Shown here in pieces: positions 624 through 18,595 of a stretch of 64,000 nt of DNA (position 1 is the first letter of the stretch; every line of letters starts with the position of its first letter). The DNA comes from an uncultured Gammaproteobacteria bacterium (GTDB taxonomy: Bacteria; Patescibacteriota; Microgenomatia; 2-02-FULL-39-11). The stretch lies in contig CAZFNL010000137.1 in assembly GCA_964520615.1 (NCBI GenBank), positions 148,898-212,897 of the forward strand. Direction: 5' to 3'. The translations under genes and the position numbers were made by a program. The notes under the pieces were generated by a model. That model did not search any database, was not told where the DNA came from, and worked only from the letters and a program-made list of their open reading frames with translations.

Positions 624-1386
624 AATCTTTCTTCTCAATGTAAGTGCCGTTTATACTATTCCACCTGATTCTTAAAAGATCCAAGAAACTTTCAATTGAA
701 TCCTTTATCGGATTAATGTGCCGTGTTTCCTGGTAATGCCACTCAACAGGAACTTCAATAATCTTATATCCCAAAAGCTTTGCCAGATAGAGTACTTCTA
801 CATCAAAACCTGCAGTAACTGTGGACCCGCTGACCCGACGTTTTAGGCTAAAAACTTGCAGCCTAGGAAAAATATCCAAAGCTGCCTTCCGGCTGAAAGC
901 CTTAAAGCCACATTGGGTATCAGAAATTCCCAGATTAAGTATAAAATTGCGTAAAAAAACAAATCCCCTTGCCATGGCCAAACGGAAAATTGGAGCTCCT
1001 TTTCTTTTGTCTTTGCGGGAACCGATGACGATGTCAATTTTTTTTTCAAAGTACGGCAAGAGGCTATTTATCTGACTAATGGGAGTTGCCTGATCCAAAT
1101 CAGAAAATAGAATTACTTTGCCCTTAGCATGCAAAACTCCTGCAGTAACAGCTGCTGCTTTACCTTGGTGTTTTTTTCTTAACAAACTGAATTTTTTATG
1201 GTCTTTGATAAAACTCTTTATAAGTGAAATACTATCATCAATACTACCGTCATCTACCAATATCACCTCATATGAAAAATTCCTTTTCCTCAGAAAATGT
1301 GAGACGCTTTCCAACGCACCCAACCTAATATTTCTTTCTTCGTTATAACAGGGAATAATGACTGATAAAAAAATTTCTTCTTGCAT
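610..1386 (-). CDS. Family 2 glycosyltransferase (dolichol-phosphate/polyprenol-phosphate sugar transferase-like)
   Basis: The N-terminus VIIPCYNEE...ILVDDGSIDDS carries the GT2 DXD-region signature. Size is 258 aa. Confidence 0.8.
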   Translation of the reverse strand: MQEEIFLSVIIPCYNEERNIRLGALESVSHFLRKRNFSYEVILVDDGSIDDSISLIKSFIKDHKKFSLLRKKHQGKAAAVTAGVLHAKGKVILFSDLDQATPISQINSLLPYFEKKIDIVIGSRKDKRKGAPIFRLAMARGFVFLRNFILNLGISDTQCGFKAFSRKAALDIFPRLQVFSLKRRVSGSTVTAGFDVEVLYLAKLLGYKIIEVPVEWHYQETRHINPIKDSIESFLDLLRIRWNSINGTYIEKKDYEPS

Positions 1387-1392
1387 GTCGGA

Positions 1393-2901: not shown

Positions 2902-2910
2902 AAACCGGTT

Positions 2911-4044
2911 TTAGCTTTTAATATGGGTTTTCCATATAAAACGGCTGTAAGCAAAATAACTGTAAGGTATAACAAGGAAAACTATTGAAAGCACCATAAA
3001 TACAAACCAGCTGCCCACTCCAAAGAAATGAGTTCCCACCCCGACAACAACTCCTTGAATCAGGATAGCACCGACTGAGACAAGATTAAACTGTATGAAT
3101 TTTGAAACAATACGGTTGTTGTTTATTTTCTTATGGGAAAAGGTCCACAAGTTATTCAGTATGAAATTGGAGATTATTGCACCTTCTGCTCCTACTGATA
3201 CGGAAACACCCGGATTAAAAGACGACAATATAAGAATTTTGGAAACAAATGTCTGAATTAGAAATCCTATACCTCCGACTACAACATATTTGAAAAAACT
3301 GGCCGAACGTTCCAGTCTGATAGAAATACTGTTATTGACATATTCAACAATATCACGAAAATAATAACGGTTAAATCCGATTTTTGACTTTCCAAACCGT
3401 CTTTCCTTAAATACCACCGGCACTTCGCAAAACTTAGCTTCGGTTTTTGACAGTTCATAAAGTATTTGCAGCTGAAAGGAAAAACCGGCATTCTTCATCC
3501 TATCCAAATCCACCTTATCAAGAATCTTTTTTACCCTGATCGCCTTAAAATTACCAGCGTGATCTTTGACTTCACGAACGCCTGCCACAAACCACGCAAG
3601 AAGGGTATTTGATACATCATGATTTAATTTCCTAAACCAATTCCAACCCAACACTTTGCCACCGGCAACGTGACGGGAAGCTACCACCACATCAAATCCT
3701 TCATCAATTTTTTTGACCAGTTTGGGATAATCAGCAGGATCCCATTGGAAATCGGCGTCATTGGGAATGACGATATCCGCCCCCAATTTCGTCATGGCAT
3801 ATTTATATCCAAGGATAAGCGCCTTACCCAATCCTTCCTTTTTTTTCAATAACAATCTTACGTTCTTACTTTTCTCCATATATTTCTTCGCTACATTTGC
3901 TGTACCGTCAGGAGAATGATCGTCAACAACAAGTATCATATTTTCCCATTTAGGATATTTTTTCCCAACGCTGTTTATCATATCGATCATTTTGCCGATA
4001 TTTTCTTTCTCGTTGTACGTGGGAATTATATGAACAATTCTCAT
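2911..4044 (-). CDS. GT2 glycosyltransferase fused to a C-terminal GtrA-like 4-TM domain
   Basis: The N-terminus HIIPTYNEKENI...VVDDHSPDGT is GT2. The C-terminal roughly 120 aa has 4 hydrophobic helices with a GtrA-like pattern. Confidence 0.75.
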   Translation of the reverse strand: MRIVHIIPTYNEKENIGKMIDMINSVGKKYPKWENMILVVDDHSPDGTANVAKKYMEKSKNVRLLLKKKEGLGKALILGYKYAMTKLGADIVIPNDADFQWDPADYPKLVKKIDEGFDVVVASRHVAGGKVLGWNWFRKLNHDVSNTLLAWFVAGVREVKDHAGNFKAIRVKKILDKVDLDRMKNAGFSFQLQILYELSKTEAKFCEVPVVFKERRFGKSKIGFNRYYFRDIVEYVNNSISIRLERSASFFKYVVVGGIGFLIQTFVSKILILSSFNPGVSVSVGAEGAIISNFILNNLWTFSHKKINNNRIVSKFIQFNLVSVGAILIQGVVVGVGTHFFGVGSWFVFMVLSIVFLVIPYSYFAYSRFIWKTHIKS

Positions 4045-5003
4045 ACTTTCTTAAAATAGGTTACTGTTCTGACCAAACCTTCCGAAAGGGGAACCTGCGG
4101 CTGCCACTTTAGAAGTCGTTTAGCTTTTGTGATGTCGGGCTTTCGCCTGTCTGGATCGTCTATCTCCTTATCTTTCACATTTATTAGATGTGACTTTGAT
4201 CTTGTAAGTTTTAGTATATATTCTCCAATTTCTCTTATGGTTTTTTCATCAGGATTACCCATGTTTATTACTTCTCCATCCAATCCTTCTTTCTGTCCTG
4301 CAATAAGCAGTCCTTCAACCATATCGCTAACATAGCAAAAAGATCTCGTCTGAGAACCATCTCCATATATCGTCAAGGGCTTATCCGATAGGACCTGGTT
4401 GATAAAGTTTGAGACAACGCGGCCATCATCAGGTTGCATTCGCGGTCCATAAGTATTAAAAATTCTCACTATCCTTATCGGCAACTTAAACTTTCTGAAA
4501 AACTCCATAGTGAGCGACTCGGCAAAACGTTTCGCCTCGTCATAACATGAACGTGTTCCGACAGTGTTTACATTGCCGTAATATGTCTCCTTTTGTGGGT
4601 GGACATGGGGATTACCGTATACTTCTGAAGTGGATGCTAAAAGAAATTTAGACCCGTTTTGACGGGCTATCTGAAGTATGTTAAAAGTACCCTCAGAATT
4701 GACTCTAAGTGTTTCTATAGAATATCTTCGGTACTGGGGCGGGCTGGCGGGAGAAGCAAGATGATATATACACTTTGTCCCACCAAGTTCTTTTTGGACT
4801 TTTTGTGATAAAGGAGAAATGATATCGTGTTTGATAAAATGAAAAGATGTATTTTTGAAGAGGTGGCTGATGTTCTTCTGGCTTCCGGTCAAAAAGTTAT
4901 CAATACAATACACTTCAAATCCTTGCTCCAGGAGCCTGTCACATAAATTTGATCCTATAAATCCCGCTCCACCTGTAACAATGCATTTGTTTGATTTCTT
5001 CAT
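4041..5003 (-). CDS. UDP-glucuronate decarboxylase (UDP-xylose synthase)
   Basis: GGAGFIGSNL Rossmann motif. HLASPASPP...LLASTSEVYG...YDEAKR...IFNTYGPRM...DGRVVSNF motifs match UXS/ArnA-decarboxylase-type SDRs nearly residue for residue. There is a 4-bp overlap with the upstream gene. Confidence 0.85.
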   Translation of the reverse strand: MKKSNKCIVTGGAGFIGSNLCDRLLEQGFEVYCIDNFLTGSQKNISHLFKNTSFHFIKHDIISPLSQKVQKELGGTKCIYHLASPASPPQYRRYSIETLRVNSEGTFNILQIARQNGSKFLLASTSEVYGNPHVHPQKETYYGNVNTVGTRSCYDEAKRFAESLTMEFFRKFKLPIRIVRIFNTYGPRMQPDDGRVVSNFINQVLSDKPLTIYGDGSQTRSFCYVSDMVEGLLIAGQKEGLDGEVINMGNPDEKTIREIGEYILKLTRSKSHLINVKDKEIDDPDRRKPDITKAKRLLKWQPQVPLSEGLVRTVTYFKKV

Positions 5004-5063
5004 TATTTGACATTTGCTGATAATTTCCTTTTTTTATCTCCCGACTATTCAATAAAATTATTC

Positions 5064-6056
5064 TTATACCCTTGCCCTCCAATAATTCAAAAGATCTTCC
5101 ATTGTCTTTTCAAAAGGGATTTGCGGTTTCCAGCCGGTTTTCTTCATGAATTTTTGTGCGTCTCCCTTGAGTACCTCTACGTCTGACGGCCGCATCCTGC
5201 TTTTATCCTGCATAACTCTGATTTTCTTTTTAGACATCGATAAAAGAAGATCAAGTACATCTCTTATTTTTATTGTTTTTCCTGAGGCTATATTGTAGAC
5301 TTCTCCAGGATCACACTTTTGCACTGAAAGATAATAAGCCTTAACCATATCCCTCACGTCGGTATAATCCCTTTTTGCTTCAAGATTACCAACATACACT
5401 ATCGGCTCCGCCTTACTCTTTTCTATCTCAGCTATCTGCTTGGCAAAAGTTGACTCGGCAAAAACATTTCCCCTTCTAGGACCGGTGTGGTTAAAACCTC
5501 TGGTGCGTATTACCCGCAATTTATAGCTTTCCCAATACTGATACCCCAAATAGTCCATCGCCAGCTTGGATACGGCATAAGGTGATAGTGGCCTGAGCGG
5601 ATTTGTCTCTCTTATGGGCAACTCATTTGCAAAGACACGTCCGTATTCTTCAGATGAACAGGCAATCTGAATAGGTATATCAAGCTGGCTTTTTCTTACA
5701 GCCTCAAAAAGATGTACAGTCCCCGTAATATTAACCTCCAAAGTGTTTGCAGGCGACTGCCAAGATGACTGGACATAAGACTGAGCGGCAAGATGGAAAA
5801 TATAGTTAGGCTTTATCTCATCAACTACCGTATAAAGGGAGTGTGCATCCAGCAGATCTGCTTCATGTAATTTGACCTTATTTTTAATATGGTCAATATT
5901 GTCGCTTTTTGATCTCCAGCGTTGCACTCCATGCACTTCCACTCCCTCGGAAAGCAACAGTTCCGCCAAATGGCTGCCTGCAAATCCGGTAATTCCTGTT
6001 ATTAACGCTATTCTATTCCCTTTCTTAGACATATAGCCCTCCAAATATACGCGCAA
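5064..6056 (-). CDS. GDP-mannose 4,6-dehydratase family SDR (Gmd/Rmd-like)
   Basis: ALITGITGFAGSHLAELLL, HLAAQS, and GNLEAKRDYTDVRDMVKAY are characteristic of Gmd / GDP-4-keto-6-deoxymannose reductase. The true start is likely the MSKKGNR methionine near 6032. Confidence 0.7.
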   Translation of the reverse strand: MRVYLEGYMSKKGNRIALITGITGFAGSHLAELLLSEGVEVHGVQRWRSKSDNIDHIKNKVKLHEADLLDAHSLYTVVDEIKPNYIFHLAAQSYVQSSWQSPANTLEVNITGTVHLFEAVRKSQLDIPIQIACSSEEYGRVFANELPIRETNPLRPLSPYAVSKLAMDYLGYQYWESYKLRVIRTRGFNHTGPRRGNVFAESTFAKQIAEIEKSKAEPIVYVGNLEAKRDYTDVRDMVKAYYLSVQKCDPGEVYNIASGKTIKIRDVLDLLLSMSKKKIRVMQDKSRMRPSDVEVLKGDAQKFMKKTGWKPQIPFEKTMEDLLNYWRARV

Positions 6057-6118
6057 AACCAGTGATGCCAGTAATTAGCGCAACCTTTTTAGCTGATTTT
6101 TTCATAAATTCCTCCTTT

Positions 6119-7414
6119 TTATTCCCTTCCAACGCCTTTATAAGTAAATCCAAGATTTTTAACCTTCTGAGGGTCGTAAATATTGCGCCCGTCAAAAAGA
6201 AAGAAATGTCTCATCACTGATTTCAATGCAGATAGATCTAACTGCTTAAACTCATTCCATTCAGTCAATACCAATACAGCATCAGTTCCCGCTACTGCAT
6301 CCATAGCGCTTTTAGCATAAGTGACATCTTCTGGCAACACTTCACGGGCTTTATCCATAGCTACAGGGTCAAACGTCTTTATATTGGCGCCCTCCTGTTT
6401 CAGTTTTTTTATGACGTCAATTGAAGGAGCCTCTCTCATATCATCAGTATTTGGCTTGAAAGCTAAACCCAATACAGCAATAGTCTTACCTTTTACTCCC
6501 TTTAGAGTCTTTATCACTTTTTCAATAAACCTTTTTTTTGCTTCTTGGTTTATTTTATATACTGCCTTCAGAAGCTCAAAATCATAACCTTTATTCTGGG
6601 AAATGGCAATAAGCGCCTTCACATCTTTTGGAAAACAGCTTCCACCGAAACCCACTCCTGGGTAAAGGAAACTCCTTCCCAACCTTTTGTCTAGCCCCAC
6701 ACCCGTCAAGACCACTTCCACATCCGCCCCTACATGATCACAGATAAAGGCCATTGCATTGGCAAAAGAAATTTTAGTTGAAAGAAGCGAATTTGAAGCG
6801 TATTTGATCATCTCTGCGGATTCAATAGAATTCACAATTCTTTCTCCATCTATCGGTTTATGGAGATCCAGAAGTAAATCTTTGGCTTTCTGGCTATCTG
6901 CACCAATCACTATTCTATCCGGGTTGAGCGTATCCTGTAAGGCTGTCCCTTCACGCAAAAATTCAGGACACGATGCAATGTCATAACTGGATTTTTTGGG
7001 GGCAAACTTTTTCAAAATTTTGGTTACCTCTCTGTTGGTTCCCACAGGCACTGTGCTTTTAGTGGCAACCACAGTATAACCGCTTAGGCTTTTGGCAATT
7101 TCACGGGAAGCTGCAAAGACGCTTGAGAGATCCGCCTCACCGTTTGTCTTGGGTGGTGTACCGACACAAATAAATACTATCTTTGAGGATGGAACTGCTT
7201 CCTTATATTCTAGGGTAAAATGGAGTCTGCCTGCGACAATATTGCGCTTGACCATCTCAGCAAGCCCCGGCTCAAAAAAGGGCATAACACCCTTTTTCAG
7301 CTTCTCAATTTTTTCTTTTGTCCGACCTACTACCCATACATTATTGCCCAGATCGGCAAAAACCGCCGCTGAAACTAGCCCTACGTAACCATGTCCAATT
7401 ACTGCTATTCTCAT
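6119..7414 (-). CDS. ugd: UDP-glucose 6-dehydrogenase
   Basis: MRIAVIGHGYVGLVSAAVFADLG N-terminus, CVGTP, GGSCFPKD catalytic Cys motif, and a C-terminal UDPG_MGDP_dh domain. Size is 431 aa. Confidence 0.85.
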   Translation of the reverse strand: MRIAVIGHGYVGLVSAAVFADLGNNVWVVGRTKEKIEKLKKGVMPFFEPGLAEMVKRNIVAGRLHFTLEYKEAVPSSKIVFICVGTPPKTNGEADLSSVFAASREIAKSLSGYTVVATKSTVPVGTNREVTKILKKFAPKKSSYDIASCPEFLREGTALQDTLNPDRIVIGADSQKAKDLLLDLHKPIDGERIVNSIESAEMIKYASNSLLSTKISFANAMAFICDHVGADVEVVLTGVGLDKRLGRSFLYPGVGFGGSCFPKDVKALIAISQNKGYDFELLKAVYKINQEAKKRFIEKVIKTLKGVKGKTIAVLGLAFKPNTDDMREAPSIDVIKKLKQEGANIKTFDPVAMDKAREVLPEDVTYAKSAMDAVAGTDAVLVLTEWNEFKQLDLSALKSVMRHFFLFDGRNIYDPQKVKNLGFTYKGVGRE

Positions 7415-7530
7415 ATTTCTCTAGGTTTATCTAAAGAGATACCATCTTTTGATTTTTCAGAGGTTTCTCTGACATAAGGTCAATTATGAGCGAAAGTTGT
7501 CATTTCTGTAAAAAGAAGAGACTGTTTTGC

Positions 7531-8475
7531 TTACAGTAATGCTAATTGCCTTTTTACTTCCATCAAACCTTCGCAAAATGTGCGCATTTTAGCACCCAAT
7601 TTGGTTATTTTATCATTTTTCAAAGCCAGCCGACAAGGGCGAAATGCCCTACCTGCAAAATATTTATGACGCGTTACCTTTTCGTATTTTCCGTTCAAAT
7701 TGAAAGTTTTCGCAATCATACCAGTAGCCTCATAAGGAGAAAGGTTTTGGCTGCCCACTACATGAAAAATACCCTGAAATTCCCTTTCTATGAGCATATC
7801 TAGCGCTCCGGCAATATCATCGATAAAAGTGGGTGTGAAAATATGATCAGTAAGAGAAAGAAGTTTTTCGCACTTTGCCATCTTTTCCATAATCCGGCGG
7901 ACAAAATCAGTTCTTTCATCAAAAGAAGACCTATATGGATAAGACAGCCTGACTACCGCATGGGATATACTTGCGCCAAGCACAGTCGTCTCCCCTTCAT
8001 GTTTGGTATATCCGTACCAGTTGACGGGATTAGGTTCATCTTCTTCTGTGTAAAAATCTTTTGTTCCGTCAAAAACAAAATCAGTTGATATGTAAAGTAC
8101 CCTAAGGTTTAATTTTTTGGCGGCATTGACAATGTTTTTTGTCCCTTCCACATTTACCATGTACGCGGGACCGTCTTCCCCGAGTATCTTGTCATCTTCA
8201 CACCCGTCTACATCTGTTTTTGCAGCCATGTGAAGTATAGTTTTTGCTGCCGAGCCTTCACAGACATTAAAAACTTGGTCGTAATCGGTAATATCCACTC
8301 CTGTCTTGAAACTCAAATCGGTAAAATCGTATTTATCTTCCAAAAGCTCCACAACTCGCGTCCCTACGAGTCCCGACAGCCCGGTACCCAAAATAGGAAT
8401 TCTCATAAGTTTTATATATCGCTGTATTGCTCTCTGTAATATTTCTGAAATATCTCGGACTTCAATCTTTTCCAC
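7531..8475 (-). CDS. rmlD: dTDP-4-dehydrorhamnose reductase
   Basis: RmlD-like SDR (ILGTGLSGLVG...YISTDFVFDG). The annotated start overlaps rmlB by 64 bp. The true start is probably the MRIPILGTG methionine at about 8406. Confidence 0.75.
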   Translation of the reverse strand: MEKIEVRDISEILQRAIQRYIKLMRIPILGTGLSGLVGTRVVELLEDKYDFTDLSFKTGVDITDYDQVFNVCEGSAAKTILHMAAKTDVDGCEDDKILGEDGPAYMVNVEGTKNIVNAAKKLNLRVLYISTDFVFDGTKDFYTEEDEPNPVNWYGYTKHEGETTVLGASISHAVVRLSYPYRSSFDERTDFVRRIMEKMAKCEKLLSLTDHIFTPTFIDDIAGALDMLIEREFQGIFHVVGSQNLSPYEATGMIAKTFNLNGKYEKVTRHKYFAGRAFRPCRLALKNDKITKLGAKMRTFCEGLMEVKRQLALL

Positions 8476-9425
8476 CAGTCTTCATTTTTTTGGTACCAGT
8501 TGACAGTTTTCTCCAAAAGGGTATCAAAATCAGTAGCAGGCACCCAACCTAGTTCGTCTTTAATCTTAGACCAGCCCACGGCATATTTCCTGTCATGCCC
8601 AGGACGGTCTTTCACAAAAGTGATAAAACTTTCGTCTTTACCCAATATCCTGAGAATTTTCTTGATAATTCCCAGGTTTGATATATCGCAAGTCAGACCT
8701 CCCACGCAGTAAGTCTCTCCAATTTGGCCATCATGCAATACCAAATCAATAGCTTTGCAATGATCTTCTACATACAACCAATCACGAATATTTTGCCCAT
8801 CCCCGTATACAGGAACCTTCTTTCCTTCAAGAATGTTTGTCACTGCAAGGGGAATAAGCTTCTCGGGATACTGGTAAGGGCCGAAATTATTGGAGCAATT
8901 GGTGATGGTGATAGGCAAACCATATGTATGGAAATATGCCCGTACCAGATGGTCTGAAGCGGCTTTGCTGGCTGCATAGGGACTTCTGGGATTATAGGCA
9001 GTCTCTTCACTAAATTTACTTTTATCATCGAGTTCCAGCGAACCGAAAACTTCGTCTGTTGAAATATGGTGGAATTTTTTGACTTTATTTCTCAGGGCCG
9101 ACTCCAAAAGTACATGGGTACCGATAATATTTGTCTCTATAAAAGCCGAAGGTTTTTTTATCGACCGGTCTACATGGCTTTCTGCGGCAAAATGGCAGAC
9201 AATATCCGTATCACTCATCAATTTATCAACCAGTTCCCTATTGCAAATATCCCCTTTTACAAATTTGTAATTCTTCTCATTTTCGACACTCTTGAGGTTT
9301 TCCTGGTTTCCGGCATAAGTCAACTTATCAAGGTTTATGATCTCATCAGCCGGGTATTTCTTCATCCAATAAAGTATAAAGTTGCTTCCTATAAAACCGG
9401 ATCCACCAGTAACCAAAATAGTCAT
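8412..9425 (-). CDS. rmlB: dTDP-glucose 4,6-dehydratase
   Basis: MTILVTGGSGFIGSNF..., HFAAESHVDRS, and YAASKAASDHLVRAY are a classic RmlB. Confidence 0.9.
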   Translation of the reverse strand: MTILVTGGSGFIGSNFILYWMKKYPADEIINLDKLTYAGNQENLKSVENEKNYKFVKGDICNRELVDKLMSDTDIVCHFAAESHVDRSIKKPSAFIETNIIGTHVLLESALRNKVKKFHHISTDEVFGSLELDDKSKFSEETAYNPRSPYAASKAASDHLVRAYFHTYGLPITITNCSNNFGPYQYPEKLIPLAVTNILEGKKVPVYGDGQNIRDWLYVEDHCKAIDLVLHDGQIGETYCVGGLTCDISNLGIIKKILRILGKDESFITFVKDRPGHDRKYAVGWSKIKDELGWVPATDFDTLLEKTVNWYQKNEDWWKRLKSEIFQKYYREQYSDI

Positions 9426-9459
9426 AAATTATTCATGCTGATTTTATAAAAGTGAGAGC

Positions 9460-9972
9460 TTAAATCTTTTTCCAGTCAAAGCCAATTATTCTGTCGTCCT
9501 CCGGTATCCTTCCCTCCTCATCAATACTGTACGTTCCCGATGTGACATAAAAAAGTTCTGAGTCAGGGGAAATTACCTTGCATCCATGGGCTACTCCTGG
9601 CGGTATCTTTAGGACAACATTTTCCCCTTTTTCGCCAAGTATGAATTCATTTAATACTCCAAATGTCGGAGATCCTTTCCTCTTATCATAAAGGCCGACA
9701 TGTAAAGTTCCTTTTGCCACGTACCACCAGTCAACCTGGGTTTTATGTATATGCCAGGCTTTCACTACCCCTTTGTGCATATAGGAGTGGGACAACTGAC
9801 CGAACCCCTCGGCAAACATATCGTCAGTCACCCGTATCAGTTCTTCAAAATAACCCCGCGCGTCATGATGTCTGACAAGTTTTTTTATTATTATCCCTTC
9901 AATCATTTTTTTATTTTTCATTTGCTCTCCCTTTCTCGGCCCAATATTTATTTGCCTGGTATAAAGTATCAA
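9460..9972 (-). CDS. rmlC: dTDP-4-dehydrorhamnose 3,5-epimerase
   Basis: Cupin with the RmlC His-Lys motifs (GYFEEL...KAWHIHK...DWWYV). The true start is probably the internal Met at about 9921 or 9906, since the listed start overlaps rmlA by 62 bp. Confidence 0.85.
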   Translation of the reverse strand: MILYTRQINIGPRKGEQMKNKKMIEGIIIKKLVRHHDARGYFEELIRVTDDMFAEGFGQLSHSYMHKGVVKAWHIHKTQVDWWYVAKGTLHVGLYDKRKGSPTFGVLNEFILGEKGENVVLKIPPGVAHGCKVISPDSELFYVTSGTYSIDEEGRIPEDDRIIGFDWKKI

Positions 9973-10654
9973 AAGTTCCTGTATCCGACCAAAAACCGTC
10001 CAGCTTCGCCCATCTTAAAGTCGACCGTTTTATATACTGGTTATTTACGTCTGAAATCTCAAGTTCATTTCTCCATGACGGTTCACAATCCCTAATATAA
10101 TCAAATACATTATTATCATATATATAGACTCCAGGGACGACGTAATTACTTTTTGGCTCTTTAGGTTTTTCCTCGATTGCCGCTATTTTACTTGGGTCTT
10201 TGGTATCAAAGACGGGGACTCCAAAACGTCCCAGTTCCTTTTTATCCCCGACTTTCTTAAGAAAGATAAGGGCACCTTCCTTAAATGAGTCCACATCTTT
10301 CTTGATATTAGCATCAGTCGTATTGTCGCCAAGAATCACGGTAATATTACCGTTGTCAGAAAAGTCCTCAGCCAGAAGTAAAGCGTCGGCTATTCCCCCA
10401 TCCGGCCTTTCCTGGTAAGCATATTCCAAATGCTTGACCCCTAACTCTTTCCCGTTTTTCAGGACACTTATAAAGTCACCTGAGTGCGGACCGCTTGTGA
10501 CAAGGATTATTTCGGAAATACCCGCTTCAACCAAAGTCCTTATGGGATAAAAAACCATCGGCTGGTTATAGACCGGCAAAAGATGTTTGTTGGTGGCAAA
10601 TGTCAGAGGATAAAGCCTTGTTCCTAATCCGCCTGCGAGTATGACGCCTTTCAT
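9911..10654 (-). CDS. rmlA: Glucose-1-phosphate thymidylyltransferase (short form)
   Basis: MKGVILAGGLGTRLYPLTFATNKHLLPVYN is the nucleotidyltransferase signature. Size is 247 aa. Confidence 0.9.
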   Translation of the reverse strand: MKGVILAGGLGTRLYPLTFATNKHLLPVYNQPMVFYPIRTLVEAGISEIILVTSGPHSGDFISVLKNGKELGVKHLEYAYQERPDGGIADALLLAEDFSDNGNITVILGDNTTDANIKKDVDSFKEGALIFLKKVGDKKELGRFGVPVFDTKDPSKIAAIEEKPKEPKSNYVVPGVYIYDNNVFDYIRDCEPSWRNELEISDVNNQYIKRSTLRWAKLDGFWSDTGTFDTLYQANKYWAEKGRANEK

Positions 10655-10674
10655 AATTGGTACTTTACACGCTT

Positions 10675-11027: not shown

Positions 11028-11933
11028 TTACAATATTACCCCAATACCGGTAGCACCCATCGCCCCAATAAGAGCTGCCAGAAATATTATGTGAGCGAGA
11101 CTATGGCCTGAAATCCTGGCTGGCTTAAATTTCCACATATAAAGGCTGTCCAGGAAAAGCACGATCAGAAGAACCTCTGCCAGTACTAGTGATACTGATT
11201 TGGAGACAGAGGCAGAAAGGATCAGAGGTTTGTTGCTGACCACGCTTGCTGGCGGTGGATTCTCCGCCTTGGTTTGTGTTGAGACTACAGGTAGGATTGT
11301 TGGAGTAGCTGTCGGTTCAGGCAAAGGATTATTTGAAGCAATATTATTTGTCTGTGGCTGGGATTGGGATCCAAACTCCTCAACCACGAGAGTAGTATCC
11401 TCACCTGTAAGCCTGCCGTTCATGACGGCAATACCGATATCAGTATATTCGGGCTTTAGAATATTTTCCCTGTGTGAGGGAGAATTCATCCATGCATCCA
11501 CCACTTCCTTGGAGGTATTAAAATCCTTGGCCAAGTTTTCACCTGCATAGACATAATGGTAGCCTGAGGCTGTAATAAAAGTCCAAGGAGTTGTCCCCGT
11601 AGGGGAAATATGGGCCCAATAATTTTTGTCAAACATATCTGTTGCTTTTTGTGTTGCGGCCGCGTCCAACTCGGAATTCAGTTTCAGGGATGAAAGCCCC
11701 CTACTGGTGCGCTCCTGATTGACATAGTAGAGTACCCTGTCGATATTTATATCTGTTGCATACCCCAGGACATTACCTCCGCTTCCTTTGTACAAACCGA
11801 TAATCATCTGAAATACGATAAGGAGCATGATGTAATAGACTATTACCCTGTGATGGAGGAGCCGCGCCCGGAAGTTATTGCTCTCATGAGGGAGAAAATA
11901 ATGATGAACGATGCGTCTGAATTTTTTCAGCAT
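11028..11933 (-). CDS. CAP/SCP/PR-1 domain secreted protein with N- and C-terminal TM segments
   Basis: YWAHISPTG...GENLAKDF...AWMNSPSHRENIL matches the CAP (YkwD-like) core. It has a Pro/Thr-rich linker and a C-terminal hydrophobic anchor. Confidence 0.7.
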   Translation of the reverse strand: MLKKFRRIVHHYFLPHESNNFRARLLHHRVIVYYIMLLIVFQMIIGLYKGSGGNVLGYATDINIDRVLYYVNQERTSRGLSSLKLNSELDAAATQKATDMFDKNYWAHISPTGTTPWTFITASGYHYVYAGENLAKDFNTSKEVVDAWMNSPSHRENILKPEYTDIGIAVMNGRLTGEDTTLVVEEFGSQSQPQTNNIASNNPLPEPTATPTILPVVSTQTKAENPPPASVVSNKPLILSASVSKSVSLVLAEVLLIVLFLDSLYMWKFKPARISGHSLAHIIFLAALIGAMGATGIGVIL

Positions 11934-11988
11934 TAATTACCATTTTTGCAGAATTTTCCCTTCAGTTCAAGACAAAGATTAAAGTGGT

Positions 11989-12942
11989 TTAATAATTCGC
12001 AGATTTGGGAGTAGCCAGCTCAATTGCTCCGGAGTCAAGATTTGCTGAACCGGTTGATGTAAACCAGTTTTCGGCAAGTATCCCGTCACCTGGTGGATCA
12101 GCCCTCACCATGGAGCTTTTGGGGTCGATAGAACTACCTTCAAACCAACCTCCGGTATCATTTGCCACATCTATCACCGTATCCTTATAATCTCTAAGCA
12201 CCAACTGTTCCCCGCCATTGGAAAGATTCATAGACGGAAAAATAAAGTCTGGATCAATATCCAGTACAGAATTATCTTTATTGTAATGAGAGATAAGAAA
12301 ATATCCTTTCCCTAATATGGTACTTTCGGGCAAAACCGCATTAAGCGTTGTGGCGTTACCCAAATTTTCCACTGTCCATCCGGTCAAATCTATACTATGT
12401 GTGGTGGTATTTCTCAGCTCTATCCACTCATCTGCAGTGCTTTTACTGCTGCCTCCCCACATCACCTCATTTATGACTACATCTCCCGGTTGGGCCTCCA
12501 TCGTCACTGTAGATGTAGGAGTCGGAGACGGAGTCATCGAGAGTGTCGGAGTTGGAGTAGAAGAAGGAGTCGCTGTCGTTGTGGGAGTAACTGATGGTGT
12601 AACTGTGGGTTCGGGATTTCCTGTTGGAGATGGTGCAACTGTAGGTTCGGGAATGTTTGTTGGAGTCAAAGTCGGCGCAGGAACGTCTCCTGGAAGCCGC
12701 GGGAGCGGTCCTAGCGCCGGCAAAGGACGAAGTGTAGGTAGCGCCCGAAGAGTCGGCAATGGCGCGAATGTAGGAAAAGGATAGAGCCTGATTGTATCAA
12801 AATAATTAGTTGCCGGAGAAAATAAGGAAACAGAACCGGATGGTAAATACTGGGCATTTACAGTCATTACCTGACTAAAAAGTGTAAGCAATCCTAGAAA
12901 GGCTCCGAGTAAAAAATAACCTATTTTTATCTTGGGCAGCAT
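11989..12942 (-). CDS. Secreted lamin-tail-domain (LTD) protein with P/T-rich linker
   Basis: Signal peptide, then a PFPTFAPLPTLRALPTLRPLP repeat module, a long PT-rich linker, and the LTD core GDVVINEVMWGG...DEWIELRN...DLTGW. Confidence 0.7.
   Translation of the reverse strand: MLPKIKIGYFLLGAFLGLLTLFSQVMTVNAQYLPSGSVSLFSPATNYFDTIRLYPFPTFAPLPTLRALPTLRPLPALGPLPRLPGDVPAPTLTPTNIPEPTVAPSPTGNPEPTVTPSVTPTTTATPSSTPTPTLSMTPSPTPTSTVTMEAQPGDVVINEVMWGGSSKSTADEWIELRNTTTHSIDLTGWTVENLGNATTLNAVLPESTILGKGYFLISHYNKDNSVLDIDPDFIFPSMNLSNGGEQLVLRDYKDTVIDVANDTGGWFEGSSIDPKSSMVRADPPGDGILAENWFTSTGSANLDSGAIELATPKSANY
12688..12780 (-). repeat. Second copy of the FPTFAPLPTLR(A/P)LPTLRPLP module at the N-terminus of the LTD protein
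   Basis: 10 identical residues (FPTFAPLPTL) are shared with the C-terminal region of the gene at 13079..13747. Confidence 0.65.
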
Positions 12943-13011
12943 TTTTTCTAATAATCAATTTTAAGGACAGTAATTCCCTACAATACATGAAACAAAAATA
13001 AATATCAGTAA

Positions 13012-13040
13012 CTTATCATACGTAAAAGCAAACGTGACAA
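13012..13040 (-). promoter_or_regulatory. Candidate sigma70-like promoter for the LTD-protein gene
   Basis: On the minus strand, TTGTCA-17nt-GATAAG about 70 nt upstream of the ATG at 12942. Only 4/6 match to -10. Confidence 0.25.
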
Positions 13041-13078
13041 TTATTACAATAGATGGCCAAATCCTATGAAAAAAGGGG

Positions 13079-13747
13079 TTACCTCAGGGAACGGAGAGTG
13101 GGCAGAGGCCGGAGAGTCGGCAGCGGTCTTAGTGTCGGCAAAGTTCGTAATGTCGGCAAGACTGTATTTAATGTAGGCAAAGGTTTGAGTGTCGGCAAAG
13201 GCGCAAATGTCGGAAATGCCCGGTCGGCAGAATCCACTCCCGCAACAATGTCAAAAATTGTGCTTTTATCCTGGTACTGGTTGCCGGCGGCGGGATCCAT
13301 GCTAACCGTAAAAACATATGTTGTCTTTGACCTTTTGGCTACCTTGGACAGCCAGACTGGACCGCCATTATAGAAATCCGAAAGGGTTTTTATCCCCGTC
13401 TCACTGCCTTGTCCGTAAAGGACTGTGCCGTTTTCGGATATGATAATAAAAAGCGCCTGCGACAATTCCGGGGTGCCGGAATCGGAAAAATTGTAAGCCT
13501 CTATCCCCACAGTCCTTGTGTAAAGGTCAGTATTTTCCACCTCAATACTTTTTGTCACTGTTTTACCCGGCAACCAGTTGGTCTCGGAAAACATCGGGGT
13601 GGAAGGGAATGTCACTTTCAGCGGGCCAAAAGCGCGCACTATACTCATCGTATCACGGCTGGTCTGGTAGGCATTTATAGCTATACCCAAAAGTATAATT
13701 GCCAAAAAAAGTGTGATTATCCTTCTTATTATTTTTATTTTATTCAT
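13079..13747 (-). CDS. TasA/camelysin-like secreted protein with C-terminal PTLRPL tandem repeats
   Basis: Signal peptide. NWLPGKTVTKSIEVENTD parallels the TasA NLKPGDxLTKxFxFxNNG motif. The C-terminal 38 aa are PTL(K/R)PL repeats. Confidence 0.55.
   Translation of the reverse strand: MNKIKIIRRIITLFLAIILLGIAINAYQTSRDTMSIVRAFGPLKVTFPSTPMFSETNWLPGKTVTKSIEVENTDLYTRTVGIEAYNFSDSGTPELSQALFIIISENGTVLYGQGSETGIKTLSDFYNGGPVWLSKVAKRSKTTYVFTVSMDPAAGNQYQDKSTIFDIVAGVDSADRAFPTFAPLPTLKPLPTLNTVLPTLRTLPTLRPLPTLRPLPTLRSLR
13082..13195 (-). repeat. 18-bp (6-codon) tandem repeat encoding PTL(K/R)PL, about 6 units
   Basis: C-terminal PTLKPLPTLNTVLPTLRTLPTLRPLPTLRPLPTLRSLR. The DNA shows reiterated ...gtcggcaa(a/g)g... 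units. Confidence 0.7.
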
Positions 13748-13780
13748 GGTTTCTCTTTTCAGCTTCTTTTCCCGCTTTTA

Positions 13781-14095
13781 TTATTGGTTCCCGCTGCCCG
13801 TACTTTCACCTGTAGTATCCGGCAAAAGTCCTGCTGATACTGTAGCGGCATTACTCTCGCTTACTACATTTGGTGTTGGCGTCGGCGCGGATGTTGCAGC
13901 CGGTACTGAAAGATTTCCGGCAGCCAGCGTCCGGACGCTTGTAGTGAGATTTGCCGTCCAAGTGCCTGTGGTAAACACGTTTCCCGTGACTTGCGTATGA
14001 GCGGTAAACTGCGCGTATGACACACCCACAAGCATATCCAAAACCAACCCCAGCATGATTGTCAGAAAAAATATCTTAGGCGAAAACTTTATCAT
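13781..14095 (-). CDS. Small secreted protein with SipW-cognate-type signal peptide
   Basis: AQFTAHTQVTGNVFTTGTW after a hydrophobic segment mirrors the N-terminus of the TasA-like protein at 14697..15182. It overlaps the 3' end of sipW by 20 bp. Confidence 0.5.
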   Translation of the reverse strand: MIKFSPKIFFLTIMLGLVLDMLVGVSYAQFTAHTQVTGNVFTTGTWTANLTTSVRTLAAGNLSVPAATSAPTPTPNVVSESNAATVSAGLLPDTTGESTGSGNQ

Positions 14096-14624
14096 TTTTT
14101 ACTCTTTCCTCCAGACTCCTGATATAGCGAGTCAGTGAATAAAGTTCTGAAAGTATCAGAACTCCCCCGGGCAGCAATATGAAAAGCGCAAATCCCTGCA
14201 ATGTCTTTATAAATGCCACAAGATAACCTATACCGGGGATGACATTTATCATCCTGCCTTTAACTGCCGCAGCCGGCACTTCCCATGTGTCGGCGGCCGT
14301 GTTGGCATCCCCCTTCGTCCGGAAAAACTCTTGATTTCCTTTTTTTTCAAAAGACGCAATTCTATGCGTTATTATCCTGCCCGGAATATTGGGATCGTCA
14401 AAAGCAATAATATCGTTTACTTTAAGAGAAGATACAGGCGTTTTTGCCACCATCACTATATCGCCCGCTTCAAATACCGGACTCATGCTGCCTGAAAGGA
14501 CCACAAAAGATGAAAGCCCCAATATGGGTATCCTTTGCGCGAAAGTGATGAATGTAAAAAAAACCAGAAGGACCATCATCGTCCCGAAAAAGACATCCTT
14601 TATATAGTCAATGATATATTTCAT
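14076..14624 (-). CDS. sipW: Signal peptidase I, SipW (archaeal/ER) type
   Basis: VLSGSMSP (catalytic Ser box) and RTKGDANTAAD match B. subtilis SipW boxes (ILSGSMEP / KTKGDNNAAAD). It has a C-terminal TM helix. Confidence 0.85.
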   Translation of the reverse strand: MKYIIDYIKDVFFGTMMVLLVFFTFITFAQRIPILGLSSFVVLSGSMSPVFEAGDIVMVAKTPVSSLKVNDIIAFDDPNIPGRIITHRIASFEKKGNQEFFRTKGDANTAADTWEVPAAAVKGRMINVIPGIGYLVAFIKTLQGFALFILLPGGVLILSELYSLTRYIRSLEERVKNDKVFA

Positions 14625-14696
14625 AATTTATTTTTTAATTTATCCCTGGTAGGGGATAGACCTCGTACCAATCGTCTATCCCCCACCATCGTCCGC

Positions 14697-15182
14697 TTAC
14701 AACTGACTACCGCTAAAGTTAAATGTTACGTTTGATGTTTGATTCTGTACCGTATTGCCTGCGTCCAGTAACTGAACATGGAAAGTCAATTGATCCTGTA
14801 ACCCATGATTCACATTCCTATTCGGTATTACCAATGAATTTACACCGGTAGGTCCAGCTATTATTGTGCTATTTGATGTATCATAAACACTAACCTCAAG
14901 ATATGGATCCAGTGTGGGATTAGTTCCGGCCGCCGTCCCGTTATATGTCATATTTAATGACCCGCCGTTAATGACGTTTAATGTAGCGTTCACGGTGTCT
15001 CCCGGCTTCATATTTGACGCTGAGATAAAACCGGATGAATTACTTGTTGATAGAACTAGATTTCCTGTTGTAAATACGTTTCCAGAATTTGTTGCTGATG
15101 CTGTAAACGTAGCAAAGGTTGCTGCACCGATAAAAAGACTGACCGCCCCGATAGACAGGACACTTGTAAGTATCCTTTTCAT
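14697..15182 (-). CDS. TasA/camelysin family (peptidase M73-like) secreted protein
   Basis: GAATFATFTASATNSGNVFTTGNLVLS...SNMKPGDTVNATLNVINGGSL aligns with the TasA N-terminal region (AAFNDI...FASGTLDLS...NLKPGD...ENNGSL). Confidence 0.8.
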   Translation of the reverse strand: MKRILTSVLSIGAVSLFIGAATFATFTASATNSGNVFTTGNLVLSTSNSSGFISASNMKPGDTVNATLNVINGGSLNMTYNGTAAGTNPTLDPYLEVSVYDTSNSTIIAGPTGVNSLVIPNRNVNHGLQDQLTFHVQLLDAGNTVQNQTSNVTFNFSGSQL

Positions 15183-15653
15183 TTATTTCTCACCTCCTTC
15201 CCGCAAAAAAATACCACTCCATAAGGAGCGGCTTTCACCATTGATAATTCTATATTTAGTTGTGGAACCGGAGGCGGGCAGAGCCATCGTATAAAATAAA
15301 AAATTTACCTCCGCTGGCGGTCGGCAAGTATTAAACCGTTCCCCATCATAATGTAAAAAAAATGAATGTCAACTGTGAAATAATAGAGAAAAATATGAAA
15401 AAGTATATCAATTTTCAGAACCGATATAGTGTGTTCTTTTTATTTATATTTTGTTCCGTATGATCTTCTACGGACGTTCACAAAGGCACAAAATGGAGCG
15501 CTGTATCCGATTTTATTGAAAAGTTGTGTTATACTTCTTGCACTTGAAATTGCAATCAGCATGTACCCTTCTAGACTGATTTAGTAACATTTTTCTTGCG
15601 AAAAAGTTTCAAAATACAGTAAGAAGGGTATATACTCTATTACTCATATTGAT

Positions 15654-17153
15654 ATGAAAGACTGGATCAAACAGCTTTTTAGCGTATATTTTGTCCGATT
15701 ATTCCCTCTTGCAGTTGTCTTCGTAGGATCACTTTTTAATCCGGCCGATTCGGACCTGGGCTGGCACTTGCGATACGGCGAGTATTTTTTCCGGCACCAT
15801 GCCATCCTCACCAGAAACCTCTTTTCCTCAGAAATGGTAAATTACGACTGGGTCAACCACTCATGGGGGACTGATATCATCACTTACTTTACATACCACC
15901 ATTTCGGCTTTTTCGGCCTCTCTGTACTGGGGGCTCTGGTGGTAGTAGCAACTATGTATTTTTTCTCCAAGGCGGCAAAACTCAACTTTTGGCAACAGGC
16001 AGTACTTTTCCCTATCCTTTTATACCTTGAAGAACCCCTGACAATTATCTCTTTCCGCTCGCAGCTGATGACTCTGGGATTTATTGGACTTGTATATTTT
16101 TTCATCTCCAAATTTGAAGAAAAAAAATACAAATGGCTTTTTGGGGTAGTACCAATGTTTCTTGTCTGGAGTAATCTTCATGGGGAATTCATACTGGGGC
16201 TGGGAGTTTTTGCCGGCTGGATAGGGATATACACATTGAGGCTTCTTTATGACAAATATATCAAAAAGCTGGAAACCGATTTCAGAGAATGGCGGATACT
16301 TACCACATCATTCCTGCTTTCTTTTGCCGCTACATTTATAAATCCTTTTACATGGCGCGTCTACCAGGAAGCGATGCACCACTTTGACAATCCTCTGCAG
16401 AAATATATTGTCGAGTGGACGCCTTTTGATACCGGCAGCACCCTCTGGTGGCGACTGGTCTATTGGGGAATACTCCTTGCCCTAAGCCTTATTATAATTG
16501 CCAAAAAGAAACAGCTAAAAAGACTCTTTCCGTATATAAGCCTCATGCTCCTTCTTTTTGTTTTTTCCTTTTGGATGAGGAGATATACCTGGCCGATGTT
16601 TCTTGTTTCCATCCCTGTTGTCGCTGTATTTGTCAAAGCCATAGAACCGCCAAACAAAAAAATATCGGCAATCTTTGCTACGTTCCTTTTGGCTGCTTAT
16701 TACTTTTATTCCATATTTATACACAACCAGTCAGCACTCCTAAGGTCCATGTCTTGGGATTTTTACTGCAAGATATATATATTCTGTTCACCCAAATCAG
16801 CCCAATATCTTGTGGAACACAAACCTGCCGGCAAAATGCTGACTTTTTACAACTGGGGAGGCTGGCTCATCTGGAATTACCCCGATATAAAACCGTCAAT
16901 GGACGGACGCATGCCTTTCTGGAAAGATGACCACGGCTATAGTGCTTTTGCACATTATTACCCTCTCGAGCAGAATATGGCAAATGTCGACGCTTCCGAA
17001 TATGACGAAATCTATATCCCGCCGACCAAACCCATATACAAACAGATGCTCAAACTTGTAGATGAAGGGCGCTGGAAAATAGTCTACCAGGATATATATG
17101 CGGGTATATTTGTCCGCAACGATATAAAACAAACAATCGGACCCCCGCTTTAG
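15654..17153 (+). CDS. Polytopic membrane protein, putative GT-C-like glycosyltransferase
   Basis: 499 aa with about 11 TM helices. It has an N-terminal DLGWHLRYGEYF loop and a C-terminal soluble domain. No specific family is recognised. Confidence 0.45.
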   Translation: MKDWIKQLFSVYFVRLFPLAVVFVGSLFNPADSDLGWHLRYGEYFFRHHAILTRNLFSSEMVNYDWVNHSWGTDIITYFTYHHFGFFGLSVLGALVVVATMYFFSKAAKLNFWQQAVLFPILLYLEEPLTIISFRSQLMTLGFIGLVYFFISKFEEKKYKWLFGVVPMFLVWSNLHGEFILGLGVFAGWIGIYTLRLLYDKYIKKLETDFREWRILTTSFLLSFAATFINPFTWRVYQEAMHHFDNPLQKYIVEWTPFDTGSTLWWRLVYWGILLALSLIIIAKKKQLKRLFPYISLMLLLFVFSFWMRRYTWPMFLVSIPVVAVFVKAIEPPNKKISAIFATFLLAAYYFYSIFIHNQSALLRSMSWDFYCKIYIFCSPKSAQYLVEHKPAGKMLTFYNWGGWLIWNYPDIKPSMDGRMPFWKDDHGYSAFAHYYPLEQNMANVDASEYDEIYIPPTKPIYKQMLKLVDEGRWKIVYQDIYAGIFVRNDIKQTIGPPL

Positions 17154-18595
17154 AATCTTCCCTTGCAAAAGTTAGGGAATCTTACGCACCAGCGCGCAAA
17201 TGGATTATACGGAGTAGGTGTCGGTGTTGATACTGATGGAGGATTGAAATTCGGTGTCGGAGTAAGTGTTGCAGTCGGTCTGGGAGTCGGAGTCAATGTC
17301 GGTGTAGGTGACGGAGAAGGAGTCGAGGTAGCTGTAGGAATCGGTGTAGCGGTAGGTACAACAATCTGGTTGTCCAATGCTTTTTCTATGCTGGATAAAG
17401 CATCTATCCTGCCGTACTGCCAGTAAAATCCCGTGCCGGGTATGTAGTCGGCCCCGCTTTCAATATCGTTTACCGCCGCTGTATTTGTCATCCCGTTTAT
17501 ACCAAAAAGAAGACCGGCTAGACCGGCCACGTGAGGAGAAGCCATGGAAGTACCGGAAAGATAACCGTAATTTTCCATCCCGATGGCATTTGGATGGTCC
17601 GGAAGAGTCGAGTAGACAGATACGCCGGGTGCGGCAACTGCCACCCAGCGGCCAAAGTTGGAAAATGAAGCACGGGAATCATTAATATCAGTAGCTGCTA
17701 CCGCAATCACATGGGAATAATAGGCCGGATAGAAAGGATAGGGTGAATTGTTGTTTCCTGCTGCAGCCACTACCACCACACCTTTATTCCAGGCATAATT
17801 TACCGCATTCTCAAGAGTCTGTGATGGATAAGGCCCGCCCAGGCTCATGTTTATCACGCTGGCTCCGTTATCGGCAGACCAGATGATACAATTTGCCAAC
17901 CACGAATAATATCCTGAACCGTCATCTCCTAGAGCTTTGGCGTTTATAAGAGAGGCATTGTAACCAACTCCCGCCACACCCACGCCATTGTTTGTTTCGG
18001 AAGCAGCGATTCCTGCCACATGCGTTCCATGTCCGAAAAGGTCATCCACTGTAGGACTATCAGTGCAATTGTGATTGGCGACAATCTTTCCCTTCAAGTC
18101 TTCATTGCTTTGGTCGATACCCGTATCCACTATGGCAATTCCCACTGAAGGACTACTTTTAACCAGACTCCAGGCGCTTCTACCCCTTCCGGCAGCATTT
18201 ATTTTATACATCCCCCACTGTAATCCCTGCAAAATCCCCGGATCATTGGTTTCCTCAGCTGTATATACCTTGTAGTCCGGCTCTGCATAAGCGACTCTGG
18301 GATCTTTACCCAATAATCCAACTGCTTTTTCCGGCGTCTGGCCGGAGGATAACCTGACCACTTCGGCGTCAAGCTTGGCTATATCTCCTTTTATTCTTTG
18401 GACTCTAATAAGCCGGTGGACGGAAAGTCTCTCATCTGAAGATAAATTCCTCTTGTATTTGATGATTACCGAATCAGTCTGTTCGTGCAAGTTGGGAGGA
18501 GATGGTAATTCCAAAGCGGTCAGTTTTGCCGGAAAAAAAAGGAAAACCAATAAACAGGATAAAAAGGCAAAAAGGAATATGGGCAGTTTCCTCAT
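17150..18595 (-). CDS. Subtilisin-like serine protease (peptidase S8) with I9 propeptide and C-terminal PT-rich tail
   Basis: Catalytic D (VDTGID), H (HGTHVAG) and S (GTSMASPHVAG) boxes. Signal peptide. C-terminal PTATPIPTATSTPSPSPTPTLTP linker. Confidence 0.9.
   Translation of the reverse strand: MRKLPIFLFAFLSCLLVFLFFPAKLTALELPSPPNLHEQTDSVIIKYKRNLSSDERLSVHRLIRVQRIKGDIAKLDAEVVRLSSGQTPEKAVGLLGKDPRVAYAEPDYKVYTAEETNDPGILQGLQWGMYKINAAGRGRSAWSLVKSSPSVGIAIVDTGIDQSNEDLKGKIVANHNCTDSPTVDDLFGHGTHVAGIAASETNNGVGVAGVGYNASLINAKALGDDGSGYYSWLANCIIWSADNGASVINMSLGGPYPSQTLENAVNYAWNKGVVVVAAAGNNNSPYPFYPAYYSHVIAVAATDINDSRASFSNFGRWVAVAAPGVSVYSTLPDHPNAIGMENYGYLSGTSMASPHVAGLAGLLFGINGMTNTAAVNDIESGADYIPGTGFYWQYGRIDALSSIEKALDNQIVVPTATPIPTATSTPSPSPTPTLTPTPRPTATLTPTPNFNPPSVSTPTPTPYNPFARWCVRFPNFCKGRF

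Follow-up and report, generated by a model that had tools for sequence, protein, structure and literature searches.

A putative donor-strand-exchange fibre locus of the TasA superfamily, with its own signal peptidase, in a Patescibacteria genome

The stretch of DNA analysed here (64,000 nucleotides of contig CAZFNL010000137.1, hereafter the window) comes from a Patescibacteria metagenome-assembled genome, and carries between positions 11028 and 15182 six co-oriented open reading frames (ORFs) on the minus strand: gene A, sipW, gene B, gene C, a gene for a lamin-tail-domain (LTD) protein and a gene for a CAP-domain protein (table 1). An earlier reading of the same letters, referred to below as the original prediction, had proposed a cell-surface fibre locus, perhaps of a small-genome bacterium, in which a SipW-type signal peptidase serves three TasA-like substrates and is joined by two further surface proteins. 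All six ORFs lie where it had placed them, the motifs that it quoted are present (VLSGSMSP, RTKGDANTAAD, NMKPGD...NGGSL and NWLPGKTVTKSIEVENTD), and the assignment to Patescibacteria bears out its guess at the kind of organism. Matches to the SipW and TasA families are significant, the genes share one strand and the gene types recur together in relatives, and the interpretation as a whole is supported, with changes to the roles of individual genes that are set out below.

Table 1. Coordinates of the six genes and associated features in the window
Feature	Coordinates	Strand	Length and basis
Membrane-anchored CAP/YkwD-domain protein	11028..11933	-	301 aa; PF00188 76.9 bits (gathering threshold 21.1), TIGR02909 120 bits
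Secreted lamin-tail-domain protein	11989..12942	-	317 aa; PF00932 56.9 bits (gathering threshold 34.3)
LPTLxP repeats in the N-terminal region of the LTD protein, common to the tail of C	12706..12777	-	Repeat analysis
Variable cassette (A, sipW, B, C)	13049..15172	.	blastn against L011/L014: no nucleotide similarity
Gene C, TasA-fold domain without donor-strand motif, predicted terminator/anchor	13079..13747	-	222 aa
Seven FPTFAP/LPTLxP hexapeptide repeats, tail of C	13088..13216	-	Repeat analysis; close C homologues carry a similar tail
Gene B, putative donor-strand-only minor subunit	13781..14095	-	104 aa; TasA-like HMM positions 4-49
SipW-type (archaeal/ER-type) signal peptidase I	14076..14624	-	182 aa; TIGR02228
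15-bp intercistronic hairpin, A/sipW	14647..14688	-	dG -28.4 kcal/mol, z -4.8
Gene A, TasA/camelysin-like putative major subunit	14697..15182	-	161 aa; PF12389 and TIGR04088 above cutoffs
Sigma-70-like promoter candidate, TTGACA-16-TATGAT	15345..15372	-	11/12 consensus matches, nothing beyond consensus; ~160 nt upstream of A

TasA fibres, which the original prediction had taken to be amyloid-like, are donor-strand-exchange polymers: the first 11 residues of the mature protein (residues 28-38) act as a donor strand that completes the next subunit and are followed by a linker, residues 39-47 (PMC9674648). The minor protein TapA has an N-terminus that resembles the TasA donor strand, and TapA residues 44-57 suffice in vivo (PMC10151520).

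Gene A encodes the candidate major subunit, composed of a SipW-type signal, a donor-strand motif (FTASATNSGNVFTTG) and a jellyroll region that is assigned by family match. The protein scores above threshold in PF12389 (34.4 bits; gathering threshold 22.5) and in TIGR04088, the family of SipW-dependent signals (21.2 bits; cutoff 19), and a profile of A with its two closest homologues picks out two structures of TasA, 5of1 and 8aur, at E 2e-4; A falls below the TasA equivalog NF046066 (31.9 bits; cutoff 450). A custom TasA-like hidden Markov model (HMM) was used in two versions, one made without any window sequence and one including A, and the 431 window ORFs of at least 50 aa served as the search space for the window scans. 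The version including A returned A, B and C only, and A covers positions 1-176 of the model. The mature N-terminus of A would be TFATFTASATNSGNVFTTGNL, and the gene is preceded by a strong ribosome-binding site (GGAGGTG). Judged by its family matches, A is a complete TasA/camelysin-like subunit.

The 5′ end of gene B overlaps the 3′ end of sipW by 20 nt and has a GGAGGA ribosome-binding site. Its product consists of a SipW-type signal, the segment QFTAHTQVTGNVFTTG and a Pro/Thr/Ser-rich tail of about 60 residues without a domain. The N-terminal peptide of B is QFTAHTQVTGNVFTTGTW and the predicted mature N-terminus is SYAQFTAHTQVTGNVFTTGTW; 11 of 21 residues are identical between the N-termini of A and B. 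With 13.7 bits, B stays under the TIGR04088 cutoff of 19, while its orthologue in the related locus L010 passes it (19.6). The HMM made without window sequences matches B at E 5e-5 over positions 4-49 only, and no jellyroll acceptor domain is found in B, which has no HMM coverage past position 49 and only a low-complexity tail; an anchor is likewise not recognisable. By this coverage, B is not a jellyroll paralogue and corresponds only to the signal and donor-strand segment.

Gene C shows the reverse pattern. It is under the gathering threshold of PF12389 (13.2 bits; threshold 22.5) and has no TIGR04088 match, and the HMM made without window sequences finds it at E 8e-16 over positions 28-170, the alignment lacking 10 residues precisely at the 'A.F(T/S)..A....N.F..G' donor motif. 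When the C family is compared profile to profile with 11 TasA-like proteins, the probability is 99% and E 4e-18, the alignment beginning at the NxxPG motif, and an AlphaFold2 model of C built on a 127-sequence alignment reaches a predicted local distance difference test (pLDDT) of 93.4 and a predicted template-modelling score (pTM) of 0.86. On profile and model together, C is a TasA-fold domain homologous to the TasA jellyroll. The complementary HMM coverage thus points to A as a complete subunit, B as a donor-strand-only protein and C as an acceptor-only one. Of the TasA/camelysin assignment that had been made for all three proteins, the part concerning A therefore stands in the curated families, whereas B and C, although significant against the custom TasA-like HMM, lie below those cutoffs. 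The idea of three paralogous substrates has to be given up, since B comprises a signal and donor strand only, and C is a jellyroll that carries neither the SipW-cognate signature nor the donor motif.

That A, B and C are instead SipW-processed secreted or surface beta-sandwich proteins that do not polymerise, perhaps camelysin-like proteases or wall-associated proteins, is highly improbable. PF12389 is named as a metallopeptidase family, and fibre polymerisation in this lineage has so far only been predicted; but an HExxH motif occurs in none of the proteins, for which reason the metalloprotease reading of 'Peptidase_M73' (PF12389) was rejected; A has the conserved TasA-type donor motif, which B copies; and a donor-only architecture complemented by an acceptor-only one is intelligible only in terms of strand exchange.

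The signal peptidase matches TIGR02228 at 96.8 bits (cutoff 51.85) over residues 8-159, which confirms the archaeal/ER (endoplasmic reticulum)-type assignment of the original prediction, and has two hydrophobic segments. It does not reach the Bacillus SipW equivalog NF046067 (99.9 bits; cutoff 190); by these scores it is a member of the broad family to which Bacillus SipW also belongs, outside the Bacillus orthologue group. S46 (in GSM), H87 (THR), D106 (GDAN) and D112, like the boxes around the first three, do not vary among the 13 family members aligned, and the boxes hold Ser/His and Asp rather than a Ser-Lys dyad; Ser46, His87 and Asp106 we take to be catalytic, as in SipW. The NCBI record of the protein is a 166-aa product that begins at an internal Met, and Logan assemblies show the 182-aa ORF. 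Fusions of SipW to additional extracellular domains are found elsewhere: L004 encodes a 324-aa protein (781-1755) with a C-terminal domain that has no assigned family, and L017 a 450-aa protein (7001-8353) in which SipW is followed by a C-type domain, an LPITG motif and a transmembrane segment.

An exhaustive phmmer search with the core of C, its matches clustered at 50% identity, returned 1187 representative clusters at E <= 1e-3 and 313 at E <= 1e-10. These proteins share an N-terminal domain of about 170 aa with variable C-terminal extensions. The domain carries no Pfam family above cutoff, PF12389 touching it weakly in 8 of 60 members, and the three members with a specific NCBI name, one of them from Minisyncoccales, are all called 'fibronectin type III domain-containing protein'; databases thus label C-type proteins only by fibronectin type III (fn3) or other C-terminal modules. 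By this search, the C-type domain defines a large family, so far unannotated. The modules seen on 60 members are fn3-like domains (31), LTD (6), RTX repeats (5) and S24/S26 peptidase fusions (2-3), and extensions in the family also include TIG and DUF11. Of the top 150 members, 84 have at their C-terminus a hydrophobic helix with a K/R-rich tail (82 among the 123 long forms), and LPxTG-like signals occur in 4; the family also includes two fusions of SipW to a C-type domain. Against PDB sequences the family profile gives borderline matches only, to FctB (E 0.012) and, in the C-terminal extensions, to fn3 domains.

The N-terminal region of the family also differs from that of A-type proteins. 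In the C-family consensus a VxA/AxA signal-peptidase site stands immediately before the 'G.L.V.F' strand, and the hydrophobic core and the PG motif are separated by a median of 31 residues (25-27 in many long forms), as against 33-51 in A-type proteins (at least 38 in seven of the eight measured). The spacer of the window C, QTSRDTMSIVRA, is not conserved among close homologues, so that C would either be cut at VRA/FG or be kept uncleaved as an N-terminal anchor; TasA-type strand donation would be impossible either way. An 'RR' pair is present in C and is not conserved in its homologues.

The full, donor-only and acceptor-only types recur as a trio in several of the other loci examined. L005, which holds the closest homologue of A (49% identical), encodes a C-like protein with an LPTL tail, an A-like protein and SipW, and L010 a B-like protein (107 aa) followed by a C-like protein 53% identical to C. 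In L008, a TasA-like gene and sipW are followed by a gene that overlaps the sipW stop and joins a B-type N-terminus through a Pro/Thr (PT) linker to an LTD, and then by a C-type gene with RTX repeats. L015 and L016 (the latter from NCBI GCA_040960315.1) each carry genes for a sortase, an A-like protein, a B-type N-terminus joined through a PT linker to Laminin_G_3 and LTD domains, a C-type protein with a proline-rich tail, a CAP protein and rml products, and in L015 a small membrane protein is encoded between the CAP and rml genes. In L017, a TasA-like gene precedes the fusion of SipW to a C-type domain described above. The sortase genes of L015 (102-758) and L016 (4150-4812) flank the A/B/C clusters, and no LPXTG signal is seen on the C-type proteins of these two loci. 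In the window, the sortase-pilus reading was rejected, as no ORF contains an LPxTG motif with a transmembrane segment; the only TLxTC match is an 81-residue ORF (2015-2257, plus strand), too short for a sortase.

The gene fusions and the anchors of C-family members together place C-type proteins at the cell and let B-type proteins carry distal modules. The opposite polarity, in which C is a FimH-like distal tip with variable adhesive modules whose LPTLxP tail recruits the LTD protein, and B is the cell-proximal base, is quite improbable. An acceptor-only subunit of two domains is the tip adhesin in chaperone-usher pili, as is well established; the C-family extensions include fn3, LTD, RTX, TIG and DUF11 modules, and LPTLxP repeats are common to the tail of C and the N-terminal region of the LTD protein. 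Yet most long C-family members end in a transmembrane helix and basic tail, which sets that end at the membrane, the LamG and LTD modules of relatives sit on B-type proteins, as on the tip protein TafC of the archaeal Tafi system (PMC11821415), and B has no recognisable anchor.

Another arrangement would be that A forms free TasA-like matrix fibres serving biofilm formation or aggregation. B would then be a TapA-like nucleator and nothing more, and C and the LTD and CAP proteins would be independent surface proteins that happen to be encoded in one operon. The Bacillus paradigm is a matrix fibre (PMC9674648), C of the window has neither a transmembrane nor an LPxTG anchor, and CAP lies outside the variable cassette described below. 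We nevertheless hold this reading to be unlikely: C is by prediction a TasA-fold domain without the donor motif, it co-occurs with A-type genes in many loci, and its relatives are mostly membrane-anchored, sortase-anchored or fused to SipW, observations that are difficult to account for if C does not interact with the fibre at the cell.

The reading that we favour, with a fair measure of confidence, is that the locus encodes a Sec- and SipW-dependent donor-strand-exchange fibre of the TasA superfamily with the order B-(A)n-C, anchored to the cell through C. SipW would remove the specialised signal peptides of A and B and so expose their N-terminal donor strands. B, with a donor strand and no acceptor domain, would insert into the first A, in a manner likened to that of TapA on TasA and of the predicted TafC, and each complemented A would donate its strand to the next to build the shaft. 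As C has an acceptor jellyroll and no donor strand, it would take the last strand and end the chain, and it may tie the fibre to the cell by its LPTLxP proline-rich tail or by an uncleaved N-terminal anchor; in its relatives a C-terminal transmembrane helix or an LPxTG signal would do so.

Several observations weigh against this reading. L015 and L016 contain the A, B and C genes with no adjacent sipW. Neither B nor C reaches the curated cutoffs of Pfam and NCBIfam. Where C is cleaved is a prediction, and a cut at INA/YQ instead of the conserved VRA/FG would leave a non-conserved extension of 13 residues. No transmembrane or LPxTG anchor was found in the window C, for which anchoring through the proline-rich tail is hypothetical. 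Co-variation between the donor strands of A and B within loci is marginal (42 of 720 permutations reach at least the observed score) and was not used as support.

The gap between A and sipW contains a strong hairpin, and hairpins of 14-17 bp (dG -22 to -31 kcal/mol, z -4.8 to -6.3 across the five loci) with unrelated sequences occupy the equivalent position in L011 (7460-7535), L005 (1428-1495), L008 (6920-7005) and L017 (6930-7005). No U-tract follows the stem in the window. The recurrence suggests a conserved attenuator or transcript-stabilising element, and its effect would probably be that A outnumbers SipW, B and C. The region of the promoter candidate upstream of A is conserved with L011. 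Between that site and the ribosome-binding site, within the 5′ leader of A (about 160 nt), lies a terminator-like hairpin with a T-run (15213-15232, minus strand), which could be a regulatory leader or a chance match.

On both sides of the fibre genes, L011, L012 and L014 (NCBI GCA_023379265.1 and GCA_023487465.1) share synteny with the window. In blastn against L011 and L014 the identity of the window is 85-93% as far as 15173, which lies nine bases into gene A, and it resumes at 13048, 31 nt past the stop of C in the spacer that precedes the LTD gene; the intervening segment has no nucleotide similarity. In L011 it is replaced by a block (6938-8641) of the order A'-sipW'-B' without a C gene, in which A' (178 aa) is 22% identical to A, SipW' is 28% identical to SipW, and B' (193 aa) carries PT and LPTL repeats. 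On either side, the flanks are conserved: the CAP protein is 92% and the LTD gene 72.5% identical to those of L011, and the flanks further comprise a 499-aa membrane protein, an S8 subtilase and the downstream rhamnose and glycosyltransferase genes. With flanks conserved and the block between them replaced, the fibre genes and their private peptidase behave as an exchangeable cassette, of which two alleles only have been seen. That such a replacement separates genomes about 90% identical elsewhere suggests that the surface structure is under strong diversifying pressure. A more far-reaching proposal would make this a cassette-exchangeable TasA-type pilus serving Patescibacteria as an organelle of host or surface attachment, in which B primes the shaft, C-type proteins anchor it, the LTD protein is recruited non-covalently through the LPTLxP repeats, and cassettes are swapped so that specificity changes or recognition by phage or host is evaded; in this full form we regard it as speculative and unlikely.

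Profile scans of contigs of GTDB-representative genomes, one for the A family and one for the C family, brought up no relative, and a metagenome scan returned a single locus, L015; the breadth of the exact arrangement is therefore known from a handful of metagenomic loci only. We found no literature on SipW in the Candidate Phyla Radiation (CPR), or on Peptidase_M73 together with LTD.

The two genes downstream of C encode the LTD and CAP domains that had been predicted, and their ties to the fibre differ. The LTD protein consists of a signal peptide, four FPTFAP/LPTLxP repeats, a PT-rich linker and the LTD. Fused to B-type tips in relatives and separate here, it would be a functionally linked surface or adhesive module, and its inclusion in the system is supported by these fusions. 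The FPTFAP/LPTLxP repeats that it has in common with C may be a shared anchoring or interaction module; such hexapeptides also occur in the tail of B' of L011 (8065-8646). The CAP protein is membrane-anchored at both ends and, at 90% identity or more, groups with proteins that NCBI names 'Patescibacteria group bacterium'. In four lineages its gene comes immediately after the fibre genes: the window, L011, L016 and L015, in the last of which it overlaps the stop of C. Its identity to the L011 protein puts it outside the variable cassette. With no mechanistic link to the fibre, CAP is a conserved neighbour whose membership in the fibre system, assumed in the original prediction, is uncertain.

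Beyond CAP, the neighbourhood at 610-10654 includes minus-strand ORFs (7531-10654) that by eye resemble dTDP-rhamnose synthesis genes, and window positions 940-10667 are syntenic with a block of L011, 92-94% identical, that holds rml genes, UDP-glucose dehydrogenase, epimerases, GT2/GtrA and PMT_2. In the window and L011 it is this rhamnose/glycosyltransferase block that comes after CAP; in L015 and L016, rml genes take that place. N-x-S/T sequons number 8 in A against 4.7 expected (p ~0.06), an enrichment that is not significant, and glycosylation of the fibre is possible but unsupported. On the other side of the locus, the gene for the 499-aa polytopic membrane protein (15654-17153, plus strand) diverges from the promoter region of gene A and is conserved in L011, L012 and L014; the protein has no Pfam or NCBIfam match. 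Adjoining the locus is the gene for the S8 subtilase (17150-18595, minus strand), which has a fervidolysin-like N-terminal prodomain and a PT-rich C-terminal region, and an S8 peptidase is also found downstream of the SipW cluster in L009; such peptidases may take part in processing. The window contains no tRNA genes, and no Rfam matches at gathering thresholds.

Set beside tapA-sipW-tasA of B. subtilis, the locus has in common a dedicated signal peptidase of the ER/archaeal type adjoining a TasA-family jellyroll subunit with an N-terminal donor strand, as well as a minor protein with a strand-mimicking N-terminus, TapA there and B here. The likeness between the latter two is functional only, as B is too short for the Ig domain of TapA and the resemblance is confined to the strand. 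Gene order also differs, being tasA-like, sipW, B, C here; A has 161 aa as against 261 in TasA; and the acceptor-only TasA-fold protein C has no counterpart described for B. subtilis.

A further parallel is the Tafi model of haloarchaeal Tat-fimbriae, which comprises TafC (donor strand and LamG) as tip, TafE as adapter, TafA as shaft, TafF (acceptor and C-terminal transmembrane segment) as anchor and TafD as signal peptidase (PMC11821415). As predicted from sequence, both systems would have a donor-only tip, a full shaft subunit, an acceptor-type anchor and a dedicated signal peptidase I, and the likeness extends to the LamG-like domain on the B-type proteins of L015 and L016 and to the C-terminal membrane segment in most C-family members. 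The present system, however, is bacterial, and A and B lack the twin-arginine (RR) motif of a Tat signal, so that export presumably runs through Sec. No adapter subunit was identified here, the tip subunit of the window has lost globular domains, with the LTD encoded separately, and in the anchor a proline-rich repeat tail stands in place of the transmembrane helix.

AbpX-type loci of the TasA superfamily are reported to encode tip, minor and LPXTG/SLH anchor proteins with a signal peptidase I (bioRxiv 10.64898/2026.01.04.697558). Like the archaeal bundling pili, they concern donor-strand-complemented jellyroll fibres (PMC9245690; bioRxiv 10.64898/2026.01.04.697558), but of other subfamilies; the AbpX-associated peptidase has ten transmembrane helices as against the two hydrophobic segments of SipW, and LTD/CAP partners and LPTLxP tails are not reported there. 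With chaperone-usher pili (FimH/FimA) there is an analogy only, in that the ends of the polymer are set by subunits without a donor strand or without an acceptor; there is no homology to usher or chaperone components. In FctB, a basal pilin of Gram-positive bacteria, a beta-sandwich is joined to a proline-rich tail that serves wall anchoring, and the weak match of FctB to the C-family profile (E 0.012) is treated as a functional analogy only. Gram-positive sortase pili differ in that the window has neither sortase nor LPXTG signal.

PF12389 homologues in Patescibacteria were noted earlier by Wang et al. (PMC9245690). With that, and with the architecture already proposed for Tafi and AbpX, the locus is an extension of known biology and not a new principle. 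As a putative surface fibre, with a possible role in adhesion or host attachment, it offers a testable candidate for a small, chaperone-free donor-strand fibre in which starter, shaft and anchor are legible from sequence. The CPR, or Patescibacteria, are mostly uncultivated episymbionts, and how they attach to hosts or surfaces is, to our knowledge, largely unknown beyond type IV pili.

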